The notes below the pieces were generated by a model. The model had not been told where the DNA came from. It did not search any database and worked only from the letters and a program-made list of their open reading frames with translations. Position numbers and translations under genes: made by a program. From a virus: a stretch of 64,000 bases of DNA. Positions 12,401-34,987 of the stretch are shown here, piece by piece (the stretch's first letter is position 1; the number at the start of each line of letters is the position of its first letter). Location: the IMG/VR virus record IMGVR_UViG_3300045988_085140, one strand, 5' to 3'.

Positions 12401-13060
12401 ATGATAGGTGCATTAATAGGTGCTGGGCTTGGGCTTGCAAGCAGTATTGCTGGCGGTATAGCTAACCGCAAGGCGAGACGTAAGCAGGAGCAGATGATTG
12501 CCCAGCAACAGAGAGAAAATCAGGCATGGTATGACAGAACATACAATACCGACCCGACCAAGCGTGCTGATACGGTTCGCTTGCTCACACAGATGCAGGA
12601 GCAGATTAAGAACCGCAACAAGGCTGCCAAGGGTAGACAAGCGGTAATGGGCGGTACGGATGATTCCACTACTGCGGTGAAGGAGGCAAACAACAAGACT
12701 CTTGCTGATACTACCTCACAGATTGTAGCTGCAAATGATGCCCGAAAGGATAACATCGAGCAGCAGTATATGAACAGAAAGAATCAGTTGCAGAACCAGC
12801 AGATGGGTATGGAAGCTGAGAAGGCTGCTGATACTGCCAATGCGGTTGCAGGTGTGGCTGGTACAGCTGCAAACATCGCTGCATCACTTGATAGTGGTGC
12901 TGGTAAGAGTAAGGTGGCTCGTCCTAACGTGGAAATGCCTACCGATGCAGAAATGGCTAAGTTGGATGCAAAGGTGGGTGCGGCTCCTACCCAGCAGCAA
13001 GTAGTGAATGATTTGAACAATATGATTGGTGACAATGCGCCAAAGAAGATTAAAGCATAG
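12401..13060 (+). CDS. Gly-zipper membrane-anchored protein (putative internal/ejection protein)
   Basis: N-terminus MIGALIGAGLGLASSIAGGIANRKARRK, then a Q/N/A-rich region. First gene of the giant-ORF operon. Confidence 0.5.
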   Translation: MIGALIGAGLGLASSIAGGIANRKARRKQEQMIAQQQRENQAWYDRTYNTDPTKRADTVRLLTQMQEQIKNRNKAAKGRQAVMGGTDDSTTAVKEANNKTLADTTSQIVAANDARKDNIEQQYMNRKNQLQNQQMGMEAEKAADTANAVAGVAGTAANIAASLDSGAGKSKVARPNVEMPTDAEMAKLDAKVGAAPTQQQVVNDLNNMIGDNAPKKIKA

Positions 13061-13063
13061 CCT

Positions 13064-14251
13064 ATGAAAGCATCAGATATGTTACGAAACAACAATGGCT
13101 TGAAGACTACACAGAGTGTGCTCAACAAGCAGCAGAGTGGGGTGGATGCCGCTCAGAAGGTGGCACAGACTCAGGCTCCAGTCTTCACCCAGCAGCAACT
13201 TGATGCGGCTGGAAAGAAGGTTGACCAGATGAATGCTGCTACTCCCACCGATGATGCTATGAAGGCGGCTAGGGCTAAGACTATCGCTACACAGCAAGCC
13301 ATCGCCAATGGGGTGGACGTGAATCAGGGAGTGCCTAGTGATGAGGAGGATAAACCATCTGTCCCTATCGTGAAGAAGGAAGAGCCTAAACCTCAGCCTA
13401 AGCAGTTGTCTTATGCTGATATGTATAAGATGCTGAATCCTGAACTGAATGAGACTGCTGATCAGAAGGCGAACCGAGAGAAGAAGGAACGTACCAAGGC
13501 TCGTATCGCAGCTCTGGGTGATGGTCTCCGTGCGCTATCCAATATCTACTTTGCTACAAAAGGTGCAAAGGTGGTACACAATCCTGAGTCGGATATGACT
13601 AAGGCGGTGAATAAACGCAAGGCATATATGGATGAGCAGAGAGAAAAGAATCGGGCATTATGGCTGGCTGGGTATCAGAGGGCACTCGCTCTTGATGAGG
13701 AAAAAAGAAAGAATAACCTGACTCTCGCTGAACTGGTGAGGTATCACGATATGCAGAACGAAATCAACAAGGTGAAGAATGGCCAAGGGCAGCAGAGAAT
13801 TGACCAAGGTAACAGAAGACTTGAACTTAGTGAGTTGAAATATACCAATGATGCCGAGTATAAGGATAATCAGTTGAAGATTAAGAAGATGCTTGCTGAT
13901 GGTCAGATAAGCCATTGGGCTGCTCAGGATGCACTTGCTAGACTGCGAGAAGGACGAATTTCTAATAAGGCTCAGAAATCTTCTGGCGGTAATCAAACTA
14001 CTGCTGGTTATTGGTATGAGTACTACGACCTGATGGACACTCCTGAGGGGCAGAAGAAGATTAATGAACTTAAAAGAAAGTTGAGAATCAAGAATGTTAC
14101 TCAGACTAACGTGAGATATATTATGGATAGATTGAAAGGAAGAAGTAGTTCTGCTGGAGGTGGTAAACCGTCTGGTGGCGGCAAGCATACAACACATAAG
14201 GCTGGCGGTTCTTCGGCTGGTGGCAAGAAGAAGACTGGCGTAAAATGGTAA
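13064..14251 (+). CDS. coiled-coil K/Q-rich protein with Gly-rich basic tail
   Basis: 395 aa. C-terminus SSAGGGKPSGGGKHTTHKAGGSSAGGKKKTGVKW. Lies between the Gly-zipper protein and the giant ORF. Confidence 0.5.
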   Translation: MKASDMLRNNNGLKTTQSVLNKQQSGVDAAQKVAQTQAPVFTQQQLDAAGKKVDQMNAATPTDDAMKAARAKTIATQQAIANGVDVNQGVPSDEEDKPSVPIVKKEEPKPQPKQLSYADMYKMLNPELNETADQKANREKKERTKARIAALGDGLRALSNIYFATKGAKVVHNPESDMTKAVNKRKAYMDEQREKNRALWLAGYQRALALDEEKRKNNLTLAELVRYHDMQNEINKVKNGQGQQRIDQGNRRLELSELKYTNDAEYKDNQLKIKKMLADGQISHWAAQDALARLREGRISNKAQKSSGGNQTTAGYWYEYYDLMDTPEGQKKINELKRKLRIKNVTQTNVRYIMDRLKGRSSSAGGGKPSGGGKHTTHKAGGSSAGGKKKTGVKW

Positions 14252-14291
14252 CAGAATTGGTAACAAGAATTTGGTAACAAACATATATATC

Positions 14292-17200
14292 ATGGCAGAA
14301 AGACCATTATACACTTTATACAAGAATCTGAAAGCACAGAACTATGATGTGCCTGATGATTACAATAAGTTTGAGAGTGCTCTGACAAGAGACGGAAAAG
14401 GTGGTGCGGATAACAGACATGCTATCTACGAGAACTTGAAGGCTCAGAACTTTGATGTTCCATCAACTTATGAGCGTTTTTACTCTGCACTCTTTGAACC
14501 ACGTAGTAAGACTTCATCTAGAGCGAAGGGCGGTAGTGTTCCTATGAGTGCTGCTGACCGTGCTCGTTTCTCTGCTGGGGCAGCAGCTATCTCGGCTAGT
14601 GCTCAGCAGACAATGAACAATGCTGGCAGATACAACAGACTGAAACAACGCAAGCAGAAACAGCAGAAGGATTTCGGTCGTGTGAACTTGGGTACACATC
14701 AGACTCCTTATGGTGGTGATGCAAACAATGTTGTGAAGGATGATTTTGCTTACAATCCTGAGACTGGCAAGACTGGCGCATACGTTACATCGGACAATGA
14801 GAATGTTTATTCTCTTCCTGAAGCTGAGCAGAAACAAGCTATTCTTGACCAGCAAAACAATGCATATCAGGAAGCGGTAGATACTGGTGAGATACCATCT
14901 GCCTTTGATGTTCGTGACAAGAAAGGTAACTATGACTTGCAGGATAACATCGGCAAGAATGGAACCTACCTTACTGAGGAAGGTGCTCAAAAGCAGTTTG
15001 ACAAGAAATTGGCTGATGCCTATGCCCGAAAGAAGGAGATTGAAGCTCTTATCGCTGAGGATAATCGCCAACACGGAAATCCTTTGCTCTCTTATGGTGC
15101 TAGTATCGGTGCAAGTAACGGAAGAACTGCTGAGCAGAGTGACTATAGAAATAAGTTGGCAACCTCTCTTTCTCTGGTTACTGAGCAGATTGGAGCGCTT
15201 GAAGCGGTGAAACAATATCCTACAAGTAGCTGGGGTGAGGATGCCTTGAAGGCTCTTGACAATACTGCATTTACTGCAAAAACATGGGATTTCGGTCTGA
15301 CTGACTTCGCTATCATGGGGCAGATGGAACGTATCAAGACAAAGATGGATAACAATATTCCTCTCTCTGGTTCTGATAAGATGCTCCTGAAGAGTAAACT
15401 TGGTGCGGATGCTGCTACGGCTATCGAAGATGAGAAGATGGGTAACGTCTATCGTTGGACGAAAATTGCAGGGAAGAGTCTCCCATTTATGGCTGACTTC
15501 TTCCTGACTGGCGGTTATGGTGGTATTACCAAGGGCATCAGTCGTGGAGCCTTGAAATTTGCTGCTAAACGTGGCATGGGCAAGGTGAGTGCTGCCATCT
15601 TGAAGAATACTGGTATCGTGGCTGGCGATGTTATCGGCTCGTATGCAATGGCTGGAACTGAGCAAGCGTTGAAGACTGGTGCTGACATCATGCAGCGACA
15701 TCTTGGTAATCTGTATCAGGATGAGAAGGGTGATTATAAGTTTGGTACTTTCGATGAGAATGGAAATCTTCTGCATGAGGGTGGTGAGTCTATTGGTACT
15801 GCTCTCTATAAGGGTATGACCTCTGCTATGGTAGAGAACTATACAGAAAAACTTTTCGGTCACAACTATGGTATCAAGAAGGGTGCTGTCAACTTCATGG
15901 AGAAACATGGTATGAATGCTTCTGCTGAGTTCTTCAAGAATATCGGCAAGAGTGGATGGTACACCAATTCCAAGAAGTGGATGGAGAAGTTCGGTATCAA
16001 TGGTTTCGCTGAGGAAGTGATGGAGGAGGAAATTGGTATTCCTCTTCATGCCCTGCTGGATGGTGAAGGTAAGGTGAGCGACCTTCTTGATGCTAAGCAG
16101 CAACTCGACATCATCGGTGGTATGGCTATCTCGGTCGGTTCTATGTATGCGATGGGTGCTGGCTCCCGACCAGTAAAAGGTATCTACAATCGTGCTCAGT
16201 ACTACCGATTCCGCAACAAGGTGAACGTGGCTGATAGTGATGCAGAGAACCTTATGGGCGATAACTGGGCAGACATCAAGGATAAGATAGACAACGCAAC
16301 TAATGAGCAGATGGGTAGTGTGCTGGCTGATATTCTCAGACAGAGAGATACCATGACCAAGGAACAGATTAATGCTGCTGTTAACTATGGTGTAAACCTG
16401 ATGAAGATGCGTGGCTACAATATTGCCAAGACTGCTGAAATGAATGCCAAGGAGATTACCAACGAACCAACAACACCTGAGGAGCAGCATCAGGCAGATA
16501 TTGACAACGCTTATTCTGAGGGGCATGATGCTGATGATGCAGATAAGCATGATATTCAGATTCAGCAGGAAGACCAGATGAAGACTCTTGCAGCAGCATT
16601 GGGTATCTCTGAGCAGCAGTTATCAGCCATGAGCGATGAGGAACTGGAATCCCTGACTGGGCAGGATGATAAACTTGACCAAGCTATCTATGACTACCAG
16701 TTGTCTTCTGCCCGATACCAAGGTGTGGTTGATGATGCACAAGATAAGGTTGACCTCGCTGCACATCAGGCAGAACAGAGAGTTGATATGTACACAGACC
16801 AGAGTCGTGGTTCTGTTCGTAACGCTACTATCAAAGCATCAGGCGGCTTGGAAGACTATGGTGTATATATTATCAGTGGTAATATTGCTACTCATGATGA
16901 TGGCTCCATTGATGTAAGCAATAGCGATGATATGATTCTCTATTATGACCCGACAACCAATAGCGTTGAACATGCTGATGCGTTGATGGTCGCTGAACTG
17001 GGTGAAGAACTACCTGCTGATGATGTGAAGGCTCAGGCGGTATCTGATGCTAAAGAGAATGCTATCAAGGAAGTGGCTGGCATCATTGATGGAACCGTTG
17101 AAGTTGGCTCCCAGTTCAATGTGACTGATACTGATGGTACTGAACATACCTATGAAGTGTTGGCTGACTATGGTGATGGTACTGCTGCTATTTCTATAGA

Positions 17201-20200
17201 TGGTAACGTGGTGGAGAATCCTTATTCGCTTGCAGACTTGCAGCAGATGAAAGACTTGGAAGACCAGAAGAGACTGGAAGCTGCCAAGGCTGAGCGTGAG
17301 CAGATGGAGAAAGAACGTGCTGCTCAGCAGAATCAGGAGACTGAGCAGACTCAACCTTCATTTGACTTCAATCAGATTCTCAATGATAATGGTAACGTGG
17401 TGCTCGTTGATGTGCTCGACAAGGATGGTAATACCAAATACCCTGACTCTAGATTATTCCTTATCCGTGATGCTGGTGCTAAAGCTAAGGTAGTTGAGTT
17501 GAAGAGTGATGGTACTCTTGTTCCTCATGCTGTGAACAAAGAAGATGTGGCTACAATCTCTTCTATGTCGCTCGATGAATACAAACAAGCTATGCCTGAA
17601 TCCTCAATGATTGAGGATAATAGTGGAGAGAATAGAGGTGAGATAGAGGTGGAAGCTCCGACAATAGAGGGCGAGGTCGCGGCTCCTGTTAATGAGGTCG
17701 CGGCTCCTGAATCTGCTGAGACTCCTGCAACTGAGCAGACTCCTGCTGCTCCTGCCATTACTCTTGAAGATGGAACCATCGTGCCTATGCTGGAGGATGG
17801 CAATCCTGACTTCTCGAAGCTGACTGCCGCACAGACTGCTGAGCTATATGATAATCAGTTTGGTGAGGATGCAGATAGTATCGTATCTGGATATGTGTCT
17901 GATGCAAAGAAGGCACTCGACAAGGCTAGCAACATGACCGTGAAGGGCAAGACTTTCGTGGAACAGAAGGCTGCTAAGGATGCCAAGGAGAAGGCTATTG
18001 CTGATGCTAAGGCGGCTTATGACTCTGCTATCGCTATCCGTGATGCTTATAATGAGCGACAACTTGCCAAGGTGGAAGATACTGCTGAGGGTAGAAAGGA
18101 ACTCATTGAGAAGGCAAGAAGAAAGTTCGCTCGCTTGAAGAGTGCGGTGAAGGATGATGCTGAGGCGGTGGCTCAAATCTATAAGGAGACGGTTGGAACT
18201 CTGCTGCATCGTCTGTATGATGGTACTGGCATTGACGTGACAGATACGATTCCGCTTACTGCCGAGGAGTATGTGGCTAGTAACCTCGGTGCTCACTCTC
18301 TCAACTATGAGGGAACAGAGACAAGTAAGGGCGTTAAGCAGGAGACTGGATTGAGTAGAGAAGACTTTGCCAAGACTCAGTTGCTCGCTGCTGATGGCAA
18401 TGGAACTACTATTGATGAGCTCGTTCATAGTCTGTGGGAGAATCGTCCATCCAACCTTGAATCACTAGACACTCAGGATATTCGTAATGCTCTTATCAGT
18501 GTACTCAATAGCGGTTTCAAGGCATCGGAAGCAAGGAATTTTGTTGAAAATATTCGCATTGCTCAGGCAGAGAACATACTTGAAGAGCAGAAACGTGCTC
18601 AGGAGAATGCAGCCTATGCTGAGCAGCACAAGGCTGAGCAAGAGGCCGAGTTGAAGGCGAAGTCGGATGAAAAGGCTGAGTTGAAGGCGAAGTCAGAAGC
18701 GAAGTCGGATAATGAATCGGATAATAAATCTGATGATTTGTCTAATGAAACGGATAATGATAAGATAAATGACAATATAAATGATAATATAAATGTTCCT
18801 GAGGATGCTACTGATGAGAATCCTTTAGGCGCAGAGCGTGATGAATCTGACCTTCCTTTCTCTACCAAGGAGAATGGCAAGCAGCAGACAACTGCCGAGC
18901 GTGCTGCTGACGTAGAGAAGAATAAGGTGGATGATATGAAGGTCGTTGACAATATCGTGGGCGAGAAGACTCGCAAGGCTTTCGAGAGACTGGCTAAGAT
19001 GATGGGTGCTAACATTCAATGGCAGTACTCAGACAAGTTGGGTAACGGCTGGATTCAGGAGACTACGGATGCCGATGGCAACGTTCATCGTACAATTTTC
19101 ATCACTCTTGACTCTTCTATCACGGAAGGTGCTCAGTTTATCTTCGGTCACGAAATGACTCACCAAATCAAGAACCTGAACCCTGCTGCATACAATGAGT
19201 TGACTCAGCTTGTGCTTGATACCTATGGCTCTGATGCCTTCGACAAGGCGGTAGATGAGACTATGCAGAGATATTCCGATGCAGGATTCTCTGGACGTGC
19301 TAGAGATTACTATGCTGAGGAGGTTGTTGCTGATGCGGTAGGCGAAATGATTCGTGACCTCAACTTGGCTCATACTCTCGCCATGAAGATGTCTCATCCT
19401 CTGCTCGCTGCTATCCATGAGATATTACAGAAGATTAAGTTGGCATTCTTTGGTACTGAGTATAGCGATGTGACCAAGAACATCATCCGCTCCATTGAAC
19501 AAGCATACGTGAAGACTGCCAATGGTCAGGTGACAAACTCCGAGACTGGCGAAGATGTTTCATTCTCTCTACGTCAAAAGCCTGAACCTAAGAAGAAGGG
19601 TATCGGATATAAGGTATTTGTGCTAAAGGATGGTAAACTCTATCCTCCGATGGTAGCGAACCCTGACGGTGCAGAAACCCCAGTCGGTGTGTGGCTCGAT
19701 GCTGATGCGGCTCCTATTGCTGGAGAAAGCAAGACTGGCAGACCTCAGGTTAAGCAGGGCGGTAAGGGAACACAAGGGGGTAGCGGTAAGCTAGCCTATA
19801 GACCAGGCTGGCATCTTGGTGTCGTGCCTTACGCTATCCAGTTCAATCGCAAGGATGCTGAGGGCAACAAGACTCTCTTCCCAAAGAACTTCGTTTTCGC
19901 TGAGGTGGAGTATGCTGCTGATGTAGATTATCAGGAGGAAGCTCGCCAAGAGGGTATCAATCCATCGGGCAAGTATCAGCATTCATTGGCTGGCTTGAAA
20001 CATCTGCCTACTGATGGATATTATATGTATCGTACCAACCCGAACCCTGAGACTGACCCTTGGGTGATTACTGGTGCGATGAAGGTGAACCGTATCTTGA
20101 CCAGAGCAGAGCAAGCGGAACTTGTGAAGAACGCTGGTCGTGAACCTCAGCAGATTCAGGAGGGCGATATTGTTACTGATGATGTCGTGAACAGCATCAA

Positions 20201-23200
20201 TCAGGAGATAGCTGATGCTCCTAAGTTCTCGTTGAAGGATAATCAGGAGAATCCTCTGAATCAGGATGGTACTTTGAAACTGGATAAGATTAAGTCCGTT
20301 GATGAATTGACGGATGAAGACTTCACTAGTGCCTTTCGTAATGTAGAGCTTCCTGCTATACCAAAGAATGTGGATGCTGCTATAGGGGCAAACGGAAAGC
20401 CTATTGTTATCAAGAAGAATATTTTTGAGAAGAATTGGAATGCTCACAAGTTTACTCCTGCTGAAAGCAAAAAGGTATTGAATGATGCTTTATACAATAC
20501 TGATTTAGTAAGGCACACACAGCCAACAAAGAAGCCTAACCATTGGGTTGCAATCAAGTTGGATGATAAAAGTCCTATCACCGTGTTGGAAGTAAACGAC
20601 AACAAGAATAATGTTGAAGTTGTTGGTTGGTATACACTTGATGAAAGAAATCTTGGGAGAATAAAAAGACAAGCTGAACGAAATGGCGGCGAACTCATTA
20701 TGTTAACTCCTAAAGATGATAAGGTGGAAAGCCTTTCCACTCCTCCGCTCAGCTCTGCTGCAAATATAATCAATTCTTTTGAAACTACCAAGGAAAATGG
20801 CGAAAAAGTTGATGTTGAGGGCACAAAATTCTCATTGAAAGATGAAGAATACCTGAAAGCGGTGGAAGATGGCAATATGGAAAAGGCTCAGAAGATGGTG
20901 AATGAAGCTGCTGATGCTGCTGGCTATTCTACAGATTCCAGCTATCAAGGTACATCTGCCTTCAATGGTGCTGCACCTTGGGGTAATGGTTACTTCTTGA
21001 CAAAGGACGAACGCAAGGAGGCATGGGATAATGGCGAGTTTGAAGGTGAATCAACTCTTGGTGATTATATCAATGATGATATTGATGGCGGCAACTTGGA
21101 GGAGTTGACTAATGCCGCATCTTATCGTGCAGCTGACCCTATGCGTAAGGAGGCTATTGATAACGTTCGTAATGCTATTCAGAAGAAAGCTAAGACTATT
21201 ACAATGTATCGTAGTGTTCCTTCTGATGTGAAGGAAGGTTCTTTCCGAAATGGTGACTGGGTTACTCCAAGTCGTGCTTATGCTGTTGATAATGCAAAAT
21301 TGCATGGATGGGGTGACGATTACAACATCATCGAACAAAAAGTTCCTGTTGATGATGTGTGGTTTGATGGCAACGATATTGCAGAATGGGGCTATGGTCG
21401 TGAGGAAGATTATATCAATGATACAGACTTCGCCTATAAGAACAGCAAGAACAACAAAAAGTTGCTTGATGCCGTTACCTATGATGATAATGGTAATGTG
21501 ATTCCTTTGTCTCAGAGATTCAATGAGAAGAATAAGGATGTGCGTTTCTCTTTGAAGGATGAAAAAACTCTTGCAGGAGTGCATAACATTACTGAGGAGA
21601 AACTGAGAAAGGCTTTGAAGCTGGGTGGCTTTGCCAATCCTTCTTTAGCTGTAATTGATACCAACAAGACTGGTCACGACAACTTTGGAGAGATTTCCTT
21701 CATCGCTCCTTCTGCCCTTTTGGATAAGCGTACTGGCAATACTGGTGGTACATGGATAACTGATGCCTATACTCAGCGTTATCCTTCCGTAGAGCGAGAA
21801 ATGAGCGAAAAGGGGTATCGGAAGTTTGAAGACTGGGTTGATAGCCTTGATTACCCAAGTGGAGCTAAGGCTGAGATTGAGAGACAGGCAAAGGATGCCC
21901 TAAGTGACAATAATGCTCCTGCTTGGGAGTTGATGTACTTGAAGGAAAAGGGTATTGATATTAAGGAGTATGATTCAAGAATTGATTATCGCTGGAAAGA
22001 GATTATCAGTGACCATCCTACTGCCGAGGATATTTTGAATAGTATGAAGACTGACCCTGAACTGAATGAAAAGGTTACAAGTCTGGCTAAGCATGCCATC
22101 ATCCATCCTACTTGGGAAAAGGTTTCTTTGGAGGTGAGAAGAAAGATGTATAAGGAGACTGGCGTTAAGGCTAGCCCTATCAATCCACAAGTAAGAAAAC
22201 AGACTAAGGAAATCTTTGAGCGTGACTATGCGCCAACCTTGCTTAACAAGGACGGCAGTCCAAGAAAAAAAGATGTGAAGAAGGTTGTTGAGGATATTGT
22301 GAAGGAACATAAAGATACCAAGAAGTATGACTTCTATCTGTCTAAGGTGAAGGCTAGTAATTACGTCAACAAGAATGGTCTTTATGATGATTACATCAGA
22401 TGGCAGGAGAACAAACTGGATGAGTTCGGAACGAAGAACCGTATCTTCCGTGGCTATACTAGGGATGGTTCCCGAAAGTATGTGCCTGAGACTCTTGAAA
22501 ATGTTTCAAAGGCTATGAGGGAAGAAGCAGATGGGCAGACCAATGGAAGCGAATATACCTCGTTTGGTAGCTTTATCGCAAAGTTGGCTAGTCGTGTTGA
22601 TTCTACAGACGAAATGCGTGCCAACAAGGATAAGTTGTCTTCTAATAAGGATAAGGAAGAATTTTACGAGAAATGGAGTGATGTTTATTATGACCTTGCC
22701 AAGTTCTTGTATAATGATGTGTTCTATGGTGAGCAGAGACTTCACGATATTGTATTGCAGTCTGACCCTAAGAAGTATGCCAAGAAAGAATATGGCATTA
22801 CCCTTACTCCTACCTTCATGAAGAAACTGGATGCCTTGAAGAATGCAGTACAGACAGAGTTGAAGAGTGCGTACTTTGAGACTAAGTACAACAGACCTCT
22901 CCGTCTAAACGAGTTTGCTGCTGCTGTGGTTCCTGATAACTTGGGCAAAGATGTACGCAAGGGTATAGAGAATGCTGGCTTACCAATGTATGACTACGAC
23001 CCGAATAAGGAAGGTGACCGCAGTCGTGCTTTCAATGAAGCTATCAATAGTAGCGACAATATCCGGTTCTCTCTCGCTGGTGTGCGTGGTGCGGCTGCTG
23101 CTGACAAGGCAGAGGAGCGTAATGCTCGTATGGATAATCTCTCCGTGGCTCGCAAGATGGAAGAAGAGAAGAAAGATGCCAAGGCTATCAAGATGGCTAC

Positions 23201-26200
23201 TGGATGGGAGCGTGGTGCTGATGGCAAGTGGAGATACGAAATGCCTGATGCCAAGATAAAGGACACGATGGACGTAGGCGGTGGACACATCGTTAAGCGT
23301 TACGAGGATGATATGCTCTGGAATGGCGGCAAACTATTTGATGTGATTGATGCACCTGAATTATTTAAGGCTTATCCTCAGTTGAAGGGTGTTCGTATTG
23401 ATACGGATGCCATTATGAACGATATGCCTTCACATGGTGAATATGATTCAAAAACCAACACCATAACCATTCATGCTGATGAGTTGAAATATATGAATGA
23501 CATATTGAATCACGAGATTCAGCATGCTATTCAAGGTATTGAGGGATTTGCCACTGGAGGTAGTCCTACAACTATTAGAGGTGAAGTCAAGAAGAGGTTT
23601 AATGAGGTCACAAAACAGATTAAGCAGCTACGAGCAGAAGGTAAGGAAGATGAGGCGAAGGCTCTCATAGAGAAGAACAGAGGTCTTTATGATGCCTACA
23701 TGAAGAATGATGATTTCAATAGCTACAAGTCACTTGCTGGCGAGGTGGAGGCAAGAAATGTGCAGGAAAGAATGAACATGACTCCTGAGGAGAGAAGAAA
23801 AACTCTCGCTGAATCTACTGAGGACGTGGCTCGTAAAGACCAGATTTTCTTGGGTGTGGGTGATGTGTCCTTCTCCCTCCGTGATATGGCTGACGGAAAG
23901 GAGAGTGGGGCGGCAGATATGGCTGAGGATTTGAAGAGTCTGAACACTCCTGATGAGGTGGATGATGCTATCAAGACTGCTATTGAGGATATGCCGAGCG
24001 GCTGGAAGATGGCTAACAAGAAGATGATTCATATTGCTCAGGCTCTGGGCGAGAATCGCAAGGCAGAGATTGCTGGCGAGGAACCTAAATTCTCCCTGAA
24101 GGATGGCACTCTCATTAAGGCTGGAACATACTTTAGCGGTGGCGGTCTTGTTGAGGAAGGCTTGAAGGGTATCATCGACCCAGTGGTGGCAGTGGAGTAT
24201 GATGAGAAGATAAGCGGCGTATATCGCAACAATTTCGGGCAGCACATCGTTACTGCTGATGTTCGTGATGTTGACCCTAAGGAGTTGGTTAAGCAGATAG
24301 ATGGCGAGGTGGAGTACTTCCATGCCAGCCCAGTCTGCAAGAACTACTCTCAGGCAAAGAGTAACCATGCTGAGGTGGAACTTGACAAGGAGACTGCTGC
24401 TAGTACTGCCGAGTTTATCAATGCTATTAAGCCAAAGGTTGTGACCATTGAGAACGTGAAGGGATATAAGGATTCCGAAGCGATGAAGACTATCACCGAT
24501 GCTCTGGATGCCAACGGCTATACTTGGGATGCAGATGTGTATAATGCTGCTGACTATGGCGGCTACACAAACCGAGAGAGATTGATTGTCCGTGCGGTTC
24601 GTGATGGTAAACTTCCTGCCAAGCCTGAGAAGATGGCACGCAAGAGCGGATGGTATGAAGCTGTGGCTGATATTATCCCGACCTTGACAGAGAAGAAGAA
24701 TGGTGTGGCTCCTTGGATGGATATTCGCTTGAAGGCTGATGGCATTGACTGGAGAAACATTGACAAGCCATTGTATGTGATGGGTAGTGCCTATGCTGAC
24801 GGCAAGGTCCCTCATGCCTTCGCTGATGAACTGCTGCCAACACTCAGAACGAAGAGTGGTGATGTGATTGTGATGCCTGATGGTAAGGTATATCGTGCCA
24901 TGGGAAGAGTGCTCGCAAGAGTATCAGGAGTGAGCGATGATTACAAGATGCCATTCTCCGAGAACCTGAGCCATATCATCATCGGCAACGGAATCCCTAC
25001 CCAGTTGACGGAACATGTGATTGCTCCTCTGCTTACTGGCTCTGACCCTAAGTTTAGCATCCGTACCTATCATGGTACTGGTGCTAGCTTTGACAAGTTC
25101 GATTTCAGCCACATGGGTGAAGGCGAAGGTTCACAAGCATTTGGATGGGGTGGTTATGTTACTAACTCTAAGGATATTGCTGAGGACTACACAAGACGTG
25201 CCAAGATAAGGAAAGATAATGACGGTTTTGAATTTGTGACAGATATGTCTGCCAATAACAAAGATATGGTAAGACAATATATCTATAAATATAAAGATGT
25301 AAACAAGGGATTGGATGCTATGAGAAAAGACCTTTCTTCTGCTCTAGAAATGTTCCCTGATGATGATGATTTAAAGGAACTTAGCAATATTCTTGCAAAG
25401 AAGAATGAGGAAATAGCTGTTCCTGATAATATTGCTTATCTTTATGATGTGGATATTCCTGATGATAATGGAGATTATCTTGACTGGGAGAATAAACTGA
25501 AAAAATCTCATTTGAATAAGGTAAATAAGGAGTTGGTTAGAATAGGCAAGGAGCCTATTGAGACCATTTATCCAAGTCGTGTTGATGGTAAGGTAAGAGG
25601 TCAAGACTTGTATGATGAACTTTCCTCTATGCTTGGTTCTAAAGAAGCAGCTAGTAAGTTGTTAAGTGATGCTGGCTTTGTTGGAATCAAGTACCCTGCT
25701 GGAACCATTTATGGCGGTGCAGAGGAAGGCGATTACAACTATGTGATATTCGATGAGACCAATGCCAATATCGTGGGTAATACCCGATTCTCCTTGCGCT
25801 ATGACCAGTTTGAGCACGACCTGAACCAGTGGAAGAAGGATAATAATCTGCCAAAGGATGCTCAGAGGCCAACCATCCCACAACGCAACGCTGGTGAGAG
25901 TGCCGTTGACTTCCTGAGGAGAGTGGACGAGTACCGCAAACAGATGGCTCTGTGGAAGACTGCTCCAACCTACGAGCAGCATCTTCTAAGTGATGATACT
26001 GCCCTTGGAGAGTTCAACCGAGAGTTGCAGCGTGGTTCTGTTCTGAAACGTATCGCCTTCCAAGATAGTATGCTGGCTATCCGCAAGGCTCAGGAAGCTA
26101 TCATGAAGGAAGTGGGTGTTGACCGTCTGAACATGGCTGAGGATGCCTATACTGCCGAGAACCGCAGTCACGGCAAGGGAAAGAACGAGTTTGAGGAATA

Positions 26201-29200
26201 CAATAATGAGTTCTTGCAGCCATTGAGAAAGGCTTATCATCAGATGAAGAAGATACTGGGTGACAGCTATGATAATGTCCGTATCTACATGATGGCTAAG
26301 CATGGCTTGGAGCGTGATTCTCAGATGGCTTTCAAAAAGTCTCTGGAAGCTGACTATGAGGACGTGGCTCAGAGAAGTGCAGCATATAAGGCTTACAAAG
26401 GCGATATGAACCGTATCATCAATGATAGCGACTTGGAGTTTGGTAGAGTAGACTTCACTACTTGGAGACAGAGAGACAATGCACTCAGGGCGAAATATTC
26501 TCCATCTTATATGAACTATCGCTACGACAAGAATGGTATTGCCTACGATTACTCAGGTTTGTCTGCTCTCTTTGACGGCTCAGACTTTGAGGAAGCTGCC
26601 TACAAACTGGTAAAGGATATTGAGGATAAGTATGTAACCGAGACTCACAACCTCTGGGATGCAACGAATGCGGCTACCAAGAAGATTCTCCGTGATGGCT
26701 ATAAGGCTGGCATGATGAGCAAAGATACTTATCAGTATGTGCGTGATATGTATAGCCATTATATTCCTCTCCGTGGCTGGTATGGCACTACTGCCGACCA
26801 AGTATGGGACTATATTGGTGGTGGAAAGGGTGCGTTCAATCAGACCTTGAAGAAGGCACACGGACGAACCTCTATCGCTGATGACCCTATCGCCTACATC
26901 GAGAATATGGCAGAGAGTGGAATCCTGCTGAACAACAAGAACTGGGTGAAACAACACCTGATGCTCTTGGCTCAGAATCATCCAACTTCCCTGCTGACCC
27001 TGAGCAAGGCTTGGTATGTGAAGAGTACGGATGCCAACGGCAACGAGGAGTGGATTCCTGCTACACCTCAGATTACTTCTCAGATGGATAGCAATCAGGT
27101 GAAGGCTGCCATTGATGCTTTCGAGAAGAAGATGGAGCAGATGGCTCAGGCTGGCGATGCTACTCAGAAGAGAGACGGATTGAACATAGCCTATCCTCAG
27201 ACTCACAGCGAGGAGAGAGAACATGAGGTGCGAGTGATGAAGGATGGCGAGGAATATGTTATCTATGTGAATGGTGACCCTCAGTTGGCTCAGGCGATGA
27301 ATAATACCAGAGCACACCGAGTAAGAGAGATTCAGAGCGGTAAACTTGATAGGGCTGCTGCTTGGTTGGGCAGAAAGATGGCTGCTGCCTATACCAGTCT
27401 TTCACCTCTCTTCATTCCTTCCAACTACTTCCGAGACCTGACCATGACGCTGGCATCTACAGCTATCCGTGAGGATGCAAAGTACAACTATCTGCTCAGA
27501 AAGAATCTGGCTACCTCTTGGAATCTCGGATTCATGCTGAGAGATTTTCAGAACGGAAAGTTGAGAGATAAGGTAAACAACGGAAACGCTACACCAAAGG
27601 AACAGATGTTCTATGACTTCATGATGAATGGTGGTGAAACTGGCTTTGTCTCTTCGCTTGACGTGGAAGACTTGAAGAAGAAATTCAAGAACGACTTGAA
27701 GGATTTGGATAGATGGAAGGCGAACCCAGTAAAGGTAGGACATACCATTATGGATAGCATTGAGTTCCTGAACAGAGCAATTGAGGATAGTAACCGATTT
27801 GCGGTTTACATGACCTCCATTCAATATGGGCGTTCTATTGATGAGGCTGTGAATGATGCCAAGAATGTAACATTGAACTTCAACCGCAAGGGTACTGGCG
27901 AATATGGCTGGCAGATGATTAGAAACCTCTATCTCTTCATCAACCCAGCAGTACAGAGTTTGCAGACTTTGGGTGCGCTTGCTAAGCATCATCCATTCAA
28001 GTTCACGGCTGTTACTGCATCGTGGTTGGCGAGTGGTGTACTGGTTCCTATCGTTAACGCTGCCCTGATGAGTATGTTGGGTGGTGATGATGATAAGGAT
28101 AAGTACTGGCAGTTCACCAAGTGGGATAGAAGAAACAACCTGATTATGTGGGTTCCGTTTACTCATGAGTATGTGAAGATTCCGCTTGCTCAGGAGTTCC
28201 GTGCCTTCTATGGAATAGGCGATATGATTGCATCTAAGATGATGGGTGGCGAGTTGGCTGAGGAAAGTTGGAGCCAGTATGCAGAAGATTTGCTCGGTCA
28301 GGTAGTGGATATGCTTCCGCTTGACCCTACTGGCTATGATGGCAATATTGCTGTCAGTCTGATGCCGAATGCTATTCGACCAGTCTTTGAGTTGGCTTTC
28401 AATGTTGACTTCACTGGCAAGCCATTATTCAAGGACACAGAGTACAACAAGTATGACCCTAACTTTACCAAGGCATACGTGGGCACTCCTGATTGGTTGG
28501 TTCGTGCATCAAGGATGGTTAACTCAATCGGAAACGACTATCCAGATGTGCAGCAGAACAGCATTGATGCTTTCGGTGACCCAAGATACAATCTGAATAA
28601 CCCTGCTGTGGTTGACCATGTATTGTCTTCTTATCTCGGTGGTGCTTACACCATGGGCAGTCAGGTGCTCGGTTTGCTTACCAAGTCGCTCAATGACCCG
28701 AAGGAAATTAAGGTGGCTGATATTCCATTATTCAGTAAGTTCGTCAGCAATCCTGATGATAGACCGGTTACTAAGAAACAAGGTGATGAGTTCTGGAATA
28801 TGAAGGAGAACCACGACCGTGCAGCCAATACCCTGAGCAAGTTGAAGAAACAAGCTAAGGTGGATGGCGATTACTCAATGCTGGAGCGGTTCTACGGCTC
28901 AGAGGAGTATAAGAAGTACAAGCAGGATGATGTGAAGGTGAAGAAGTATGAGGAAGACAAGAAGAAGGAACGTGCTGAGGAGAGTGGGGAGGAGTATAGA
29001 CCTCACAAGTTGAATGCCGAGGATATATACAAGGCTCATGCTACTCCGAAGGATGATTTCGAGGACTTGAAGCTGAAACAACTCTACACCAAACTGAACG
29101 GATTCAAGACTTCCTATGACCTCTTGGTTGATACGGCTCCTAGTCAGAGCGATGGCTACTACAACAACAACAAGGCTGCCATTGATGCCATTGACGAGAT

Positions 29201-29378
29201 TTCCCTTGACAAGCAGGAGATTTCCGAGTTGAAGAAAGGTTTCTTGGATGATGGCAAGGATGCCTACAACGCTGAGGACATGAAGCAGATTCGTGACCTG
29301 AGAAAGAAGATTCTTTCCGTGCTGGAGAAGGCTAACAAGGTAGTTGTGGCTAACCAGAAGGCAAAGGCTAAGAAGTAA
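14292..29378 (+). CDS. giant polyvalent (multi-effector) virion-type protein, ~5028 aa
   Basis: Single uninterrupted frame. Table start 14271 is TTG; the first ATG is at 14292. Contains HEMTH (19149-19163), HEIQH (23511-23525), a complete C5-MTase motif set (24105-25052), Gly-rich hydrophobic segments and acidic low-complexity linkers. Confidence 0.85.
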   Translation: MAERPLYTLYKNLKAQNYDVPDDYNKFESALTRDGKGGADNRHAIYENLKAQNFDVPSTYERFYSALFEPRSKTSSRAKGGSVPMSAADRARFSAGAAAISASAQQTMNNAGRYNRLKQRKQKQQKDFGRVNLGTHQTPYGGDANNVVKDDFAYNPETGKTGAYVTSDNENVYSLPEAEQKQAILDQQNNAYQEAVDTGEIPSAFDVRDKKGNYDLQDNIGKNGTYLTEEGAQKQFDKKLADAYARKKEIEALIAEDNRQHGNPLLSYGASIGASNGRTAEQSDYRNKLATSLSLVTEQIGALEAVKQYPTSSWGEDALKALDNTAFTAKTWDFGLTDFAIMGQMERIKTKMDNNIPLSGSDKMLLKSKLGADAATAIEDEKMGNVYRWTKIAGKSLPFMADFFLTGGYGGITKGISRGALKFAAKRGMGKVSAAILKNTGIVAGDVIGSYAMAGTEQALKTGADIMQRHLGNLYQDEKGDYKFGTFDENGNLLHEGGESIGTALYKGMTSAMVENYTEKLFGHNYGIKKGAVNFMEKHGMNASAEFFKNIGKSGWYTNSKKWMEKFGINGFAEEVMEEEIGIPLHALLDGEGKVSDLLDAKQQLDIIGGMAISVGSMYAMGAGSRPVKGIYNRAQYYRFRNKVNVADSDAENLMGDNWADIKDKIDNATNEQMGSVLADILRQRDTMTKEQINAAVNYGVNLMKMRGYNIAKTAEMNAKEITNEPTTPEEQHQADIDNAYSEGHDADDADKHDIQIQQEDQMKTLAAALGISEQQLSAMSDEELESLTGQDDKLDQAIYDYQLSSARYQGVVDDAQDKVDLAAHQAEQRVDMYTDQSRGSVRNATIKASGGLEDYGVYIISGNIATHDDGSIDVSNSDDMILYYDPTTNSVEHADALMVAELGEELPADDVKAQAVSDAKENAIKEVAGIIDGTVEVGSQFNVTDTDGTEHTYEVLADYGDGTAAISIDGNVVENPYSLADLQQMKDLEDQKRLEAAKAEREQMEKERAAQQNQETEQTQPSFDFNQILNDNGNVVLVDVLDKDGNTKYPDSRLFLIRDAGAKAKVVELKSDGTLVPHAVNKEDVATISSMSLDEYKQAMPESSMIEDNSGENRGEIEVEAPTIEGEVAAPVNEVAAPESAETPATEQTPAAPAITLEDGTIVPMLEDGNPDFSKLTAAQTAELYDNQFGEDADSIVSGYVSDAKKALDKASNMTVKGKTFVEQKAAKDAKEKAIADAKAAYDSAIAIRDAYNERQLAKVEDTAEGRKELIEKARRKFARLKSAVKDDAEAVAQIYKETVGTLLHRLYDGTGIDVTDTIPLTAEEYVASNLGAHSLNYEGTETSKGVKQETGLSREDFAKTQLLAADGNGTTIDELVHSLWENRPSNLESLDTQDIRNALISVLNSGFKASEARNFVENIRIAQAENILEEQKRAQENAAYAEQHKAEQEAELKAKSDEKAELKAKSEAKSDNESDNKSDDLSNETDNDKINDNINDNINVPEDATDENPLGAERDESDLPFSTKENGKQQTTAERAADVEKNKVDDMKVVDNIVGEKTRKAFERLAKMMGANIQWQYSDKLGNGWIQETTDADGNVHRTIFITLDSSITEGAQFIFGHEMTHQIKNLNPAAYNELTQLVLDTYGSDAFDKAVDETMQRYSDAGFSGRARDYYAEEVVADAVGEMIRDLNLAHTLAMKMSHPLLAAIHEILQKIKLAFFGTEYSDVTKNIIRSIEQAYVKTANGQVTNSETGEDVSFSLRQKPEPKKKGIGYKVFVLKDGKLYPPMVANPDGAETPVGVWLDADAAPIAGESKTGRPQVKQGGKGTQGGSGKLAYRPGWHLGVVPYAIQFNRKDAEGNKTLFPKNFVFAEVEYAADVDYQEEARQEGINPSGKYQHSLAGLKHLPTDGYYMYRTNPNPETDPWVITGAMKVNRILTRAEQAELVKNAGREPQQIQEGDIVTDDVVNSINQEIADAPKFSLKDNQENPLNQDGTLKLDKIKSVDELTDEDFTSAFRNVELPAIPKNVDAAIGANGKPIVIKKNIFEKNWNAHKFTPAESKKVLNDALYNTDLVRHTQPTKKPNHWVAIKLDDKSPITVLEVNDNKNNVEVVGWYTLDERNLGRIKRQAERNGGELIMLTPKDDKVESLSTPPLSSAANIINSFETTKENGEKVDVEGTKFSLKDEEYLKAVEDGNMEKAQKMVNEAADAAGYSTDSSYQGTSAFNGAAPWGNGYFLTKDERKEAWDNGEFEGESTLGDYINDDIDGGNLEELTNAASYRAADPMRKEAIDNVRNAIQKKAKTITMYRSVPSDVKEGSFRNGDWVTPSRAYAVDNAKLHGWGDDYNIIEQKVPVDDVWFDGNDIAEWGYGREEDYINDTDFAYKNSKNNKKLLDAVTYDDNGNVIPLSQRFNEKNKDVRFSLKDEKTLAGVHNITEEKLRKALKLGGFANPSLAVIDTNKTGHDNFGEISFIAPSALLDKRTGNTGGTWITDAYTQRYPSVEREMSEKGYRKFEDWVDSLDYPSGAKAEIERQAKDALSDNNAPAWELMYLKEKGIDIKEYDSRIDYRWKEIISDHPTAEDILNSMKTDPELNEKVTSLAKHAIIHPTWEKVSLEVRRKMYKETGVKASPINPQVRKQTKEIFERDYAPTLLNKDGSPRKKDVKKVVEDIVKEHKDTKKYDFYLSKVKASNYVNKNGLYDDYIRWQENKLDEFGTKNRIFRGYTRDGSRKYVPETLENVSKAMREEADGQTNGSEYTSFGSFIAKLASRVDSTDEMRANKDKLSSNKDKEEFYEKWSDVYYDLAKFLYNDVFYGEQRLHDIVLQSDPKKYAKKEYGITLTPTFMKKLDALKNAVQTELKSAYFETKYNRPLRLNEFAAAVVPDNLGKDVRKGIENAGLPMYDYDPNKEGDRSRAFNEAINSSDNIRFSLAGVRGAAAADKAEERNARMDNLSVARKMEEEKKDAKAIKMATGWERGADGKWRYEMPDAKIKDTMDVGGGHIVKRYEDDMLWNGGKLFDVIDAPELFKAYPQLKGVRIDTDAIMNDMPSHGEYDSKTNTITIHADELKYMNDILNHEIQHAIQGIEGFATGGSPTTIRGEVKKRFNEVTKQIKQLRAEGKEDEAKALIEKNRGLYDAYMKNDDFNSYKSLAGEVEARNVQERMNMTPEERRKTLAESTEDVARKDQIFLGVGDVSFSLRDMADGKESGAADMAEDLKSLNTPDEVDDAIKTAIEDMPSGWKMANKKMIHIAQALGENRKAEIAGEEPKFSLKDGTLIKAGTYFSGGGLVEEGLKGIIDPVVAVEYDEKISGVYRNNFGQHIVTADVRDVDPKELVKQIDGEVEYFHASPVCKNYSQAKSNHAEVELDKETAASTAEFINAIKPKVVTIENVKGYKDSEAMKTITDALDANGYTWDADVYNAADYGGYTNRERLIVRAVRDGKLPAKPEKMARKSGWYEAVADIIPTLTEKKNGVAPWMDIRLKADGIDWRNIDKPLYVMGSAYADGKVPHAFADELLPTLRTKSGDVIVMPDGKVYRAMGRVLARVSGVSDDYKMPFSENLSHIIIGNGIPTQLTEHVIAPLLTGSDPKFSIRTYHGTGASFDKFDFSHMGEGEGSQAFGWGGYVTNSKDIAEDYTRRAKIRKDNDGFEFVTDMSANNKDMVRQYIYKYKDVNKGLDAMRKDLSSALEMFPDDDDLKELSNILAKKNEEIAVPDNIAYLYDVDIPDDNGDYLDWENKLKKSHLNKVNKELVRIGKEPIETIYPSRVDGKVRGQDLYDELSSMLGSKEAASKLLSDAGFVGIKYPAGTIYGGAEEGDYNYVIFDETNANIVGNTRFSLRYDQFEHDLNQWKKDNNLPKDAQRPTIPQRNAGESAVDFLRRVDEYRKQMALWKTAPTYEQHLLSDDTALGEFNRELQRGSVLKRIAFQDSMLAIRKAQEAIMKEVGVDRLNMAEDAYTAENRSHGKGKNEFEEYNNEFLQPLRKAYHQMKKILGDSYDNVRIYMMAKHGLERDSQMAFKKSLEADYEDVAQRSAAYKAYKGDMNRIINDSDLEFGRVDFTTWRQRDNALRAKYSPSYMNYRYDKNGIAYDYSGLSALFDGSDFEEAAYKLVKDIEDKYVTETHNLWDATNAATKKILRDGYKAGMMSKDTYQYVRDMYSHYIPLRGWYGTTADQVWDYIGGGKGAFNQTLKKAHGRTSIADDPIAYIENMAESGILLNNKNWVKQHLMLLAQNHPTSLLTLSKAWYVKSTDANGNEEWIPATPQITSQMDSNQVKAAIDAFEKKMEQMAQAGDATQKRDGLNIAYPQTHSEEREHEVRVMKDGEEYVIYVNGDPQLAQAMNNTRAHRVREIQSGKLDRAAAWLGRKMAAAYTSLSPLFIPSNYFRDLTMTLASTAIREDAKYNYLLRKNLATSWNLGFMLRDFQNGKLRDKVNNGNATPKEQMFYDFMMNGGETGFVSSLDVEDLKKKFKNDLKDLDRWKANPVKVGHTIMDSIEFLNRAIEDSNRFAVYMTSIQYGRSIDEAVNDAKNVTLNFNRKGTGEYGWQMIRNLYLFINPAVQSLQTLGALAKHHPFKFTAVTASWLASGVLVPIVNAALMSMLGGDDDKDKYWQFTKWDRRNNLIMWVPFTHEYVKIPLAQEFRAFYGIGDMIASKMMGGELAEESWSQYAEDLLGQVVDMLPLDPTGYDGNIAVSLMPNAIRPVFELAFNVDFTGKPLFKDTEYNKYDPNFTKAYVGTPDWLVRASRMVNSIGNDYPDVQQNSIDAFGDPRYNLNNPAVVDHVLSSYLGGAYTMGSQVLGLLTKSLNDPKEIKVADIPLFSKFVSNPDDRPVTKKQGDEFWNMKENHDRAANTLSKLKKQAKVDGDYSMLERFYGSEEYKKYKQDDVKVKKYEEDKKKERAEESGEEYRPHKLNAEDIYKAHATPKDDFEDLKLKQLYTKLNGFKTSYDLLVDTAPSQSDGYYNNNKAAIDAIDEISLDKQEISELKKGFLDDGKDAYNAEDMKQIRDLRKKILSVLEKANKVVVANQKAKAKK
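18648..18795 (+). repeat. low-complexity coding repeats (AELKAKS x2, NDNI x2)
   Basis: GAGTTGAAGGCGAAGTC occurs at 18648-18664 and 18678-18694, followed by a D/N/K/S-rich tract. A similar 16-nt repeat GAGGTCGCGGCTCCTG occurs at 17673-17688 and 17694-17709. Confidence 0.7.
18930..19562 (+). other. zincin-like HExxH module 1 inside the giant ORF
   Basis: ...TIFITLDSSITEGAQFIFGHEMTHQIKN...YAEEVVADAVGEM. Bounded upstream by the D/N/K/S low-complexity linker and downstream by the first FSLR motif. Confidence 0.5.
23079..23870 (+). other. zincin-like HExxH module 2 inside the giant ORF
   Basis: ATGWERGADGKWRYEMPD ... ILNHEIQHAIQGIEGFA ... SLAGEVEARNVQER. Lies between FSLA (23067) and FSLR (23871). 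Confidence 0.5.
24105..25052 (+). other. C5-cytosine DNA methyltransferase module inside the giant ORF
   Basis: YFSGGGL (motif I), VAVEYD (II), HASPVCKNYS (IV, Cys codon 24336-24338), TIENVKG (VI), TNRERLIVRA (VIII), IIGNGIP (X). Confidence 0.75.
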
Positions 29379-34983: not shown

Positions 34984-34987
34984 ATTA

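Follow-up and report, generated by a model that had tools for sequence, protein, structure and literature searches.

A selected five-residue peptide marks the cassette borders of a giant phage polyvalent protein and may be the cleavage site of an in-chain zincin

What is the function of a short peptide that recurs nine times along one giant phage protein, each time at the border between two modules? The question is raised by the virus record IMGVR_UViG_3300045988_085140 of IMG/VR, of which a stretch of 64,000 nucleotides, hereafter the window, was analysed. One open reading frame (ORF) of the window encodes a giant phage polyvalent protein in the sense of Iyer et al. 2017 (PMC5512222), in which N- and C-terminal scaffolds enclose a variable array of cassettes. 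Every cassette border of this array is marked by the peptide [K/R/S]-[F/Y]-S-[L/I/V]-[K/R/A]. The answer favoured here, with a probability of roughly one half, is that the peptide is the recognition and cleavage site of a zincin-like metallopeptidase of the same chain, chiefly of the domain termed MP1.

A scan of the translation finds FS[LI][KRA] nine times in the 5,035 amino acids of the giant protein, and the residue in front of the phenylalanine is lysine, arginine or serine in 9/9 copies (Table 1; the phenylalanine codons are the first codons of units 1 to 8 and of the C-terminal scaffold). All nine FS[LI] tripeptides of the protein belong to the motif. By chance, 0.24 copies of FS[LI][KRA] are expected, with a maximum of three in composition-preserving shuffles (n=2,000; Poisson 6e-12), and 0.04 copies if the preceding K, R or S is required as well (Poisson 5e-19). 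A first-pass annotation of the same DNA, made from the letters alone, had listed the nine copies with their flanking residues and the resulting unit lengths; coordinates, residues and lengths proved exact, as did its placement of a methyltransferase between copies 7 and 8 and of an HEIQH peptide (residues 3081-3085) between copies 5 and 6. It had further stated that each unit coincides with a recognisable module, which holds for the six of eight units with a Pfam or PHROG match; the Pfam domains begin 4-14 residues downstream of the motif. A degenerate copy, RFSAG, was also pointed out near the N-terminus. It is present, but it is unlike the nine copies and, since relatives tolerate RFLAG at this place, it is probably no working copy. 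In a phmmer search, the N-terminal stretch 'SSRAKGGSVPMSAADRARFSAGAAA' (14520-14600) aligns with the unit 5 junction 'GDRSRAFNEAINSSDNIRFSLAGVRGAAAA' (23028-23110), which represents a local similarity.

The motif is limited to the variable array: a motif scan of the N-terminal scaffold returned zero copies, neither scaffold contains any, and the full motif occurs in no other real gene of the window. The same consensus, as a set of cleavage sites would call for, is found at 9/9 array borders, and module families are delimited by it on both sides. The first-pass annotation knew of no description of such a peptide, and none was found in the searchable literature either, where queries with the peptide strings returned unrelated acronyms only.

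In relatives, the motif is the exact point of module exchange. When the giant protein is compared with its homologues by BLAST, the starts of the high-scoring segment pairs pile up at position -2 and their ends at +3 relative to the phenylalanine, and 44% of the starts and 66% of the ends lie within 15 residues of a motif, compared with 12.7% expected. Conservation at the module borders of homologues was what the first-pass annotation had made its idea depend on, and it is borne out strongly. When 121 proteins are cut at the motif, 651 internal modules of 26 families result. The families have tight length ranges and often identical lengths (e.g., 221, 233 or 32 residues), and their members combine into 83 architectures with 72 different pairs of neighbours. 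The layout around these modules is constant: an N-terminal scaffold, the HExxH zincin MP1, a motif, five to ten motif-separated cassettes, a further motif and a C-terminal scaffold. Among the 70 ORFs of at least 4,000 residues, each has 6-11 motif copies and a C-terminal scaffold of around 1,195 residues after the last copy, and an HExxH lies at most 200 residues upstream of the first copy in 68. One metagenome-assembled genome (MAG) of Prevotella reaches 16 copies.

Some junctions of the relatives deserve mention in their own right. In the 121 proteins, unit 6 is followed by the methylase unit without exception. A 32-residue version of unit 6, module 'B', is bounded by the motif on both sides in relatives (e.g., P0079, residues 1265-1296) and has GW[KQ]xANKKxIHIA in common with the 73-residue version; this mini-module might be a pro-peptide or a regulator of the methylase. 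In P0054, P0073 and P0072, the tail 'AFNEAINSSDNIR' precedes the motif both after the end of the PBECR5 unit and after a variant MP2 unit. Since the same tail follows two different modules, an exchanged cassette may carry its own upstream linker. In these variants, VSMMGSR replaces the motif after MP2.

Several lines of evidence reveal that purifying selection acts on the motif as a peptide and not as DNA. A self-BLAST of the nine flanking units detects no similarity among them, and the nine copies differ at synonymous sites, with TCT, TCG, TCA, TCC and AGC all used for the serine. In 120 database homologues, FS[LI][KRA] occurs 718 times, i.e., 2.1 times per 1,000 residues; the family consensus is [KRS]-[FY]-S-[LIV]-[KRA], with 721 phenylalanines versus 158 tyrosines and an essentially invariant serine. 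The five core residues are the sole common part of 27 unrelated flanks, related contexts having been removed. For the codon analysis, 80 viral contigs and the window were combined to a set of 81 genomes, in which 743 motif instances comprise 363 distinct 45-nucleotide contexts, 84 distinct 15-nucleotide cores and 11 pentapeptides. For the serine codon, entropy is low at the first two positions (0.32 bits each) and high at the third (1.85 bits), whereas flanking codons vary at all three. Peptide-level selection of this kind argues against a recombination signal at the DNA level, and such a site was rejected on the codon diversity of the motif cores.

Table 1. Features of the giant gene and its upstream neighbours in the window.
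Feature	Position	Strand	Remarks
T7 gp14-family-like gene (internal virion/ejection protein)	12401..13060	+	PF24072, E 6.8e-6, 26.6 bits; cut-off 27
Gene at gp15 position, 395 aa	13064..14251	+	without family match
Giant ORF, 5,035 aa	14271..29378	+	phage polyvalent/ejection protein (translation, Pfam)
N-terminal scaffold	14271..18935	+	aa 253-1429 common to Bacteroides phage BKO1-TP3 gp55 (BLASTP 4.9e-46)
Degenerate RFSAG	14565..14579	+	relatives here: RFLAG, RFSRN, RPSAH
MP1, zincin-like metallopeptidase candidate, with disordered tail up to motif 1	18936..19562	+	HEMTH 19149-19163, EEVVAD 19317-19334
Motif 1, S-FSLR	19560..19574	+	follows MP1 in distant homologues too; pLDDT <50
Unit 1, 221 aa	19563..20225	+	phrog_30118
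Motif 2, K-FSLK	20223..20237	+	motif scan
Unit 2, 201 aa, LPD13	20226..20828	+	Pfam E 4e-43, residues 13-150
Motif 3, K-FSLK	20826..20840	+	motif scan
Unit 3, 239 aa	20829..21545	+	matches C-terminal part of ParB-annotated phrog_2579
Motif 4, R-FSLK	21543..21557	+	motif scan
Unit 4, 507 aa, PBECR5 predicted RNase and further region	21546..23066	+	Pfam E 5.5e-20
Motif 5, R-FSLA	23064..23078	+	motif scan
Unit 5, 268 aa, LPD23 and MP2 candidate	23067..23870	+	HEIQH 23511-23525, GEVEARN 23739-23759
Motif 6, S-FSLR	23868..23882	+	motif scan; pLDDT <50
Unit 6, 73 aa, helical mini-module	23871..24089	+	
Motif 7, K-FSLK	24087..24101	+	motif scan
Unit 7, 321 aa, C5 cytosine DNA methyltransferase	24090..25052	+	Pfam E 2e-30, residues 15-311
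Motif 8, K-FSIR	25050..25064	+	motif scan
Unit 8, 245 aa, ART-PolyVal/DUF3990-like ADP-ribosyltransferase candidate	25053..25787	+	Pfam below cut-off
Motif 9, R-FSLR, opening the C-terminal scaffold	25785..25799	+	motif scan
C-terminal scaffold, 1,196 aa, LPD38	25788..29375	+	common to 933W L0134, JC1 gp69, Vibrio and Ralstonia phage giants

Two HExxH domains of the giant protein, MP1 and MP2, come into question as the protease, and sequence and models single out MP1 as the best candidate. MP1 contains HEMTH (residues 1627-1631) and EEVVAD (residues 1683-1688), in which H, E, H, E, E and D do not vary across an alignment that reaches down to 22% identity. The position of motif 1 is kept in the same alignment, where it reads FSLR, FSIR, LSLRE or RSVRE and its serine is more than 90% conserved. 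In an AlphaFold2 (AF2) model of MP1 with a predicted local distance difference test (pLDDT) of 76.7, a helix and three strands are followed by the HExxH helix and then by one with the glutamate. This topology agrees with the description of the zincin-like domain of polyvalent proteins by Iyer et al. 2017 (PMC5512222), in which three strands come after an N-terminal helix and before the HExxH helix and a further helix that bears the Glu. The best BFVD matches of the model, to polyvalent and MuF-C proteins, reach E 2e-7; those to the zincins IrrE and SprT are weak. Of 24 motif-rich polyvalent proteins, 16 have MP1, compared with 3 of 53 motif-poor ones (p=3e-8). MP2, which contains HEIQH, is optional in relatives, lacks an association with the motif and would thus be a possible protease only. 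It has a weak match to DUF6782; sequence and profile searches of MP2 in PDB, Pfam and NCBIfam produced no usable result, and a fold search is meaningless with the poor AF2 model of units 5 and 6 (pLDDT 55). The suggestion of the first-pass annotation that the HExxH modules act as proteases is therefore favoured for the N-terminal one and not for HEIQH. The two AF2 models cover several motif copies, for which low pLDDT served as a proxy for disorder: residues 197-237 of the MP1 model, including motif 1, have a pLDDT below 50, motifs 5 and 6 lie in stretches below 50 as well, and motif 7 is located at the edge of one.

If the motif is cut by MP1, the giant chain would leave the capsid by threading, as a single polypeptide, and then be processed; the host cell would be a likelier place for this than the capsid. 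Independently acting enzymes for anti-defence and takeover would be released from the array, which comprises unit 1, LPD13, the module matching the ParB PHROG, the PBECR5 RNase, LPD23 with HExxH, the mini-module, the C5 methylase and the ADP-ribosyltransferase-like cassette. Thermolysin-like zincins typically prefer a bulky hydrophobic residue at P1'. The scissile bond is guessed to lie between [K/R/S] and [F/Y], because F or Y would suit this preference. Processing at the motif is made plausible by the conserved HExxH...EExxxD zincin that lies shortly before the first copy in 68 of 70 full-length relatives, by the low-confidence stretches in which the modelled copies are found, and by the proposal of Iyer et al. 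2017, made in their treatment of the peptidase domains (PMC5512222), that zincin-like peptidases process polyvalent proteins. The passages of that paper on peptidases, linkers and boundaries name no inter-domain site or junction motif.

Several observations weigh against cleavage by an in-chain zincin. The fold search of the MP1 model against PDB returned no significant match, and MP1 matches no peptidase family of Pfam or NCBIfam. The association of MP1 with the motif is confounded by shared ancestry and is not independent evidence, as an association of about the same strength is seen for the N-terminal scaffold and for unit 1. According to the passages of Iyer et al. on such domains (PMC5512222), N4 vRNAP, ArdC and TraC1 carry peptidase domains of this type and are transferred uncut. 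The motif is missing from the LPD38 giants of 933W, JC1, Vibrio D66, Ralstonia Dimitile and BKO1-TP3, all of which except that of Vibrio D66 contain HExxH. Finally, a protease may have limited access to some junctions, as their linkers are very short; motif 8, for example, follows the last helix of the methylase after only about 6 residues.

The alternative that survives best, although it is unlikely, is an uncut handle between the modules, which would bind a common partner such as the capsid interior or portal in packaging, a chaperone by which modules are kept unfolded, or the tail or ejectosome channel acting as a ratchet for the exit of the chain of about 5,000 residues. Selection on the peptide and the low-confidence stretches around the modelled copies would fit a handle as well, and so would the ejection-protein position of the giant. 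Related giants have been found in virions and fragments were not reported (PMC9144972; phi24B preprint), and some peptidase-bearing polyvalent proteins are delivered uncut, as stated in the peptidase passages of PMC5512222. However, the giants of 933W, JC1 and BKO1-TP3 must be packaged and ejected alike and do without the motif, which in turn is restricted to the variable array and absent from the scaffolds, and copies that are only 32 residues apart in relatives, or 73 residues here, are ill-suited as spacing handles.

More doubtful than an uncut handle is cleavage by another protease, either a host enzyme that the chain meets once injected or a phage enzyme whose gene lies elsewhere. It would gain from the lack of association between MP2 and the motif, from the possibility that the association of MP1 merely reflects the clade, and from three motif-rich proteins without HExxH (P0145, P0126 and P0171), which are possibly fragments. 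On the other hand, among the window genes tested neither a prohead protease nor one of another kind was detected, the motif is confined to a single real gene of the window, and the HExxH domain precedes the first copy in nearly all relatives. A prohead-protease site in particular was rejected, as no such protease was detected among the genes tested and no other gene contains the motif.

An extension of the zincin reading, which must be regarded as a long shot, combines cutting with timing. In the bacterial N-end rule, as established for ClpS/ClpAP and Aat of E. coli, leucine, phenylalanine, tyrosine and tryptophan are primary and arginine and lysine secondary N-degrons. A zincin cut immediately before the aromatic residue would produce such starts: F or Y would be the first residue of released effectors, and in lineages with the LSLRE or RSVRE variants it would be L or R. 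Each injected nuclease, ADP-ribosyltransferase or methylase would then be activated and quickly destroyed, FSLK, RFS[KR], RSVRE and SSLRSEH would represent co-evolving, lineage-specific pairs of protease and site, and polyvalent proteins would be true phage polyproteins.

It is improbable that the motif is a scar or convenience of cassette exchange, that is, an in-frame recombination junction with no role in the mature protein. Homology blocks do break exactly at the motif and the architectures are heavily shuffled; however, the amino acids do not change although third positions are saturated, the serine of the first copy is retained down to 22% identity, and the 84 DNA versions include both TCN and AGC serine codons, and 15 nucleotides that differ at synonymous sites cannot guide homologous recombination. 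A classical secretion tag is unlikely since the motif is internal and repeated nine times. Nup98, PIDD and Unc5CL cleave themselves at HFS sites through an N-to-O acyl shift. Self-cleavage of this kind at the aromatic-serine bond would suit a serine that is essentially invariant and always follows F or Y, but is very improbable: HFS autoproteolysis needs a histidine at -1 and a conserved bond-straining fold, whereas K, R or S is found at -1 here, the flanks are mutually unrelated and the modelled copies lie in low-confidence stretches, and the motif is thus not assigned to this type.

The pentapeptide is one of several punctuation peptides in the wider family. At E<=1e-3, the representative library contains 10,461 relatives of the ADP-ribosyltransferase-like unit 8. 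Proteins sharing this module were clustered at 50% to 147 representatives, of which 15 contain at least three copies of the five-residue motif and 112 contain none; with a looser four-residue pattern, 24 have at least four copies. Variants are found at multiple junctions of other lineages, namely [VI]-RFS-[KR] in P0145, P0135 and P0254, RFS[VI] in P0173 (and, judged by enriched k-mers and one junction, in P0201) and RSVRE in P0129 and P0212. P0250 (4,989 residues) contains SSLRSEH seven times, each time after an acidic, proline-rich stretch, which looks like a different punctuation peptide of another polyvalent lineage. In the motif-less LPD38 giants of 933W, JC1, D66, Dimitile and BKO1-TP3, no other punctuation k-mer is over-represented. 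The five residues before the YHGS start of ADP-ribosyltransferase modules are lineage-specific and read KFS[LI][KR], [VIL]RE[HQ]R, xLFQx or [VI]RF[SRQ]x. As general punctuation, [LIVM]RE[HQ]R and h-h-[FY]-Q, found ahead of such modules in other lineages, were rejected; they occur only once or twice per protein and are part of the ADP-ribosyltransferase module.

The giant gene is part of a podovirus genome, which also encodes an SU10-type major capsid protein and adaptor, a portal, a large terminase and an endolysin. Its translation more likely starts with the ATG at 14292 (MAERPLY) than with the listed TTG at 14271. LPD13, PBECR5, LPD23, the C5 methylase and LPD38 are signature domains in PMC5512222, on which the class assignment is based; the protein contains three LPD domains and more than one unrelated effector or enzymatic domain in a phage context. 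All five matches lie above the Pfam cut-off and in separate units (4e-13 for LPD23 and 8.5e-23 for LPD38; the others are given in Table 1), and those of ART-PolyVal and DUF3990 lie below it. Since a T7 gp14-like gene is located two genes upstream, the giant gene occupies the position of T7 gp16. Together with the two genes at 12401-14251, it may form an ejectosome module of the gp14-gp15-gp16 kind, in which the third member has expanded to 5,035 residues. By analogy, the giant protein is probably packed into the phage head and injected. Two homologous giants, JC1 gp69 (PMC9144972) and phi24B gp47 (bioRxiv 10.64898/2026.04.10.717836), have been identified in virions by mass spectrometry.

The host probably belongs to Prevotella/Segatella. 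A copy that is 97% identical over MP1 and unit 1 is present in a prophage of the complete chromosome of Segatella copri HDE04 (NZ_CP152346.1, 1476469-1497758) and in Prevotella MAGs. The phage is probably temperate, given that relatives of the giant gene reside in bacterial chromosomes and MAGs. MAG contigs assigned to Oscillospiraceae and Akkermansia matched as well; binning errors are probable. A megablast search of the region against cultured phages gave no match, and tblastn of MP1 and unit 1 retrieved no cultured phage with the same backbone. Further downstream, the GC content drops to 0.27 at 34001-36000 compared with about 0.44 elsewhere. Two ORFs on the minus strand (33727-34983 and 34988-36667) have weak PHROG matches ('virion structural protein', 'tail sheath'), and 34001-36000 may be a receptor-binding region that was recently acquired or evolves fast.

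How does this protein compare with known systems? Head-maturation sites, such as L/I-x-E of T4 gp21 or S/A/G-x-E of the phiKZ and SPN3US prohead proteases, are likewise short consensus peptides for the processing of packaged and ejected proteins. A dedicated prohead protease cuts them, and capsid and scaffold proteins contain them too, whereas the motif occurs in no second real gene of the window. The viral polyproteins of picornaviruses (3C, cutting between Q and G), potyviruses (NIa) and nidoviruses (3CLpro) have a repeated site and a chymotrypsin-like protease. As in these, one consensus peptide stands at each product border and a protease, here a candidate, lies within the polyprotein; unlike the replication and structural polyproteins of RNA viruses, the giant is accessory cargo of a tailed DNA phage. 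Its closest counterparts by homology are the LPD38 giants of 933W/phi24B-like and Bcep22/JC1-like podoviruses and BKO1-TP3 gp55, which have a homologous C-terminal scaffold (24-32% identity) and the same gene position behind small internal-virion genes; with gp55, the N-terminal scaffold is shared as well. Homology over the last 1,000 residues extends to the giants of 933W, JC1/Bcep22 and of Vibrio and Ralstonia podoviruses. These relatives differ from the giant of the window in having neither the motif nor another punctuation k-mer.

A parallel in logic is also provided by the MARTX toxins of Vibrio, in which an InsP6-activated cysteine protease domain (CPD) in cis cuts after leucine in the linkers between effectors and thereby releases them. 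In both systems, conserved terminal regions for delivery flank a variable, recombining array, a short linker site is found at each junction and a protease, here a candidate, is part of the chain. Here, the N- and C-terminal scaffolds are conserved to BKO1-TP3 and the C-terminal one also to 933W and JC1, and the array between them occurs in 83 architectures. In contrast to MARTX, the candidate protease is a zincin, delivery would be by phage ejection rather than secretion, the site has five residues and its cleavage is putative. Pfam detects no CPD in the giant protein, which is therefore not a member of the MARTX family; the analogy is one of logic only.

Polyvalent proteins are among the largest and commonest cargo proteins of phages and conjugative elements, and their cutting by their own metallopeptidases has been predicted since 2017 and, to our knowledge, never shown. 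As described in the domain sections of Iyer et al. (PMC5512222), they combine many unrelated effector domains in one polypeptide, in a late or virion gene context, and the domains of the window's giant are found among them: LPD13, LPD23, LPD38, PBECR5, an ART-PolyVal-like domain, a methylase and zincin-like HExxH domains. The class is thus known, and the junction motif is new as far as the searchable literature shows: a defined pentapeptide at every cassette border, in one sub-lineage only. The motif provides a simple rule for parsing proteins of 5,000-6,000 residues into functional cassettes in abundant gut phages of Prevotella/Segatella, by which about 20 module families come to light, and suggests a natural plug-and-play format for the engineering of injected cargo. 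Above all, a strongly selected five-residue junction is a concrete site, which makes the processing hypothesis of 2017 directly testable.

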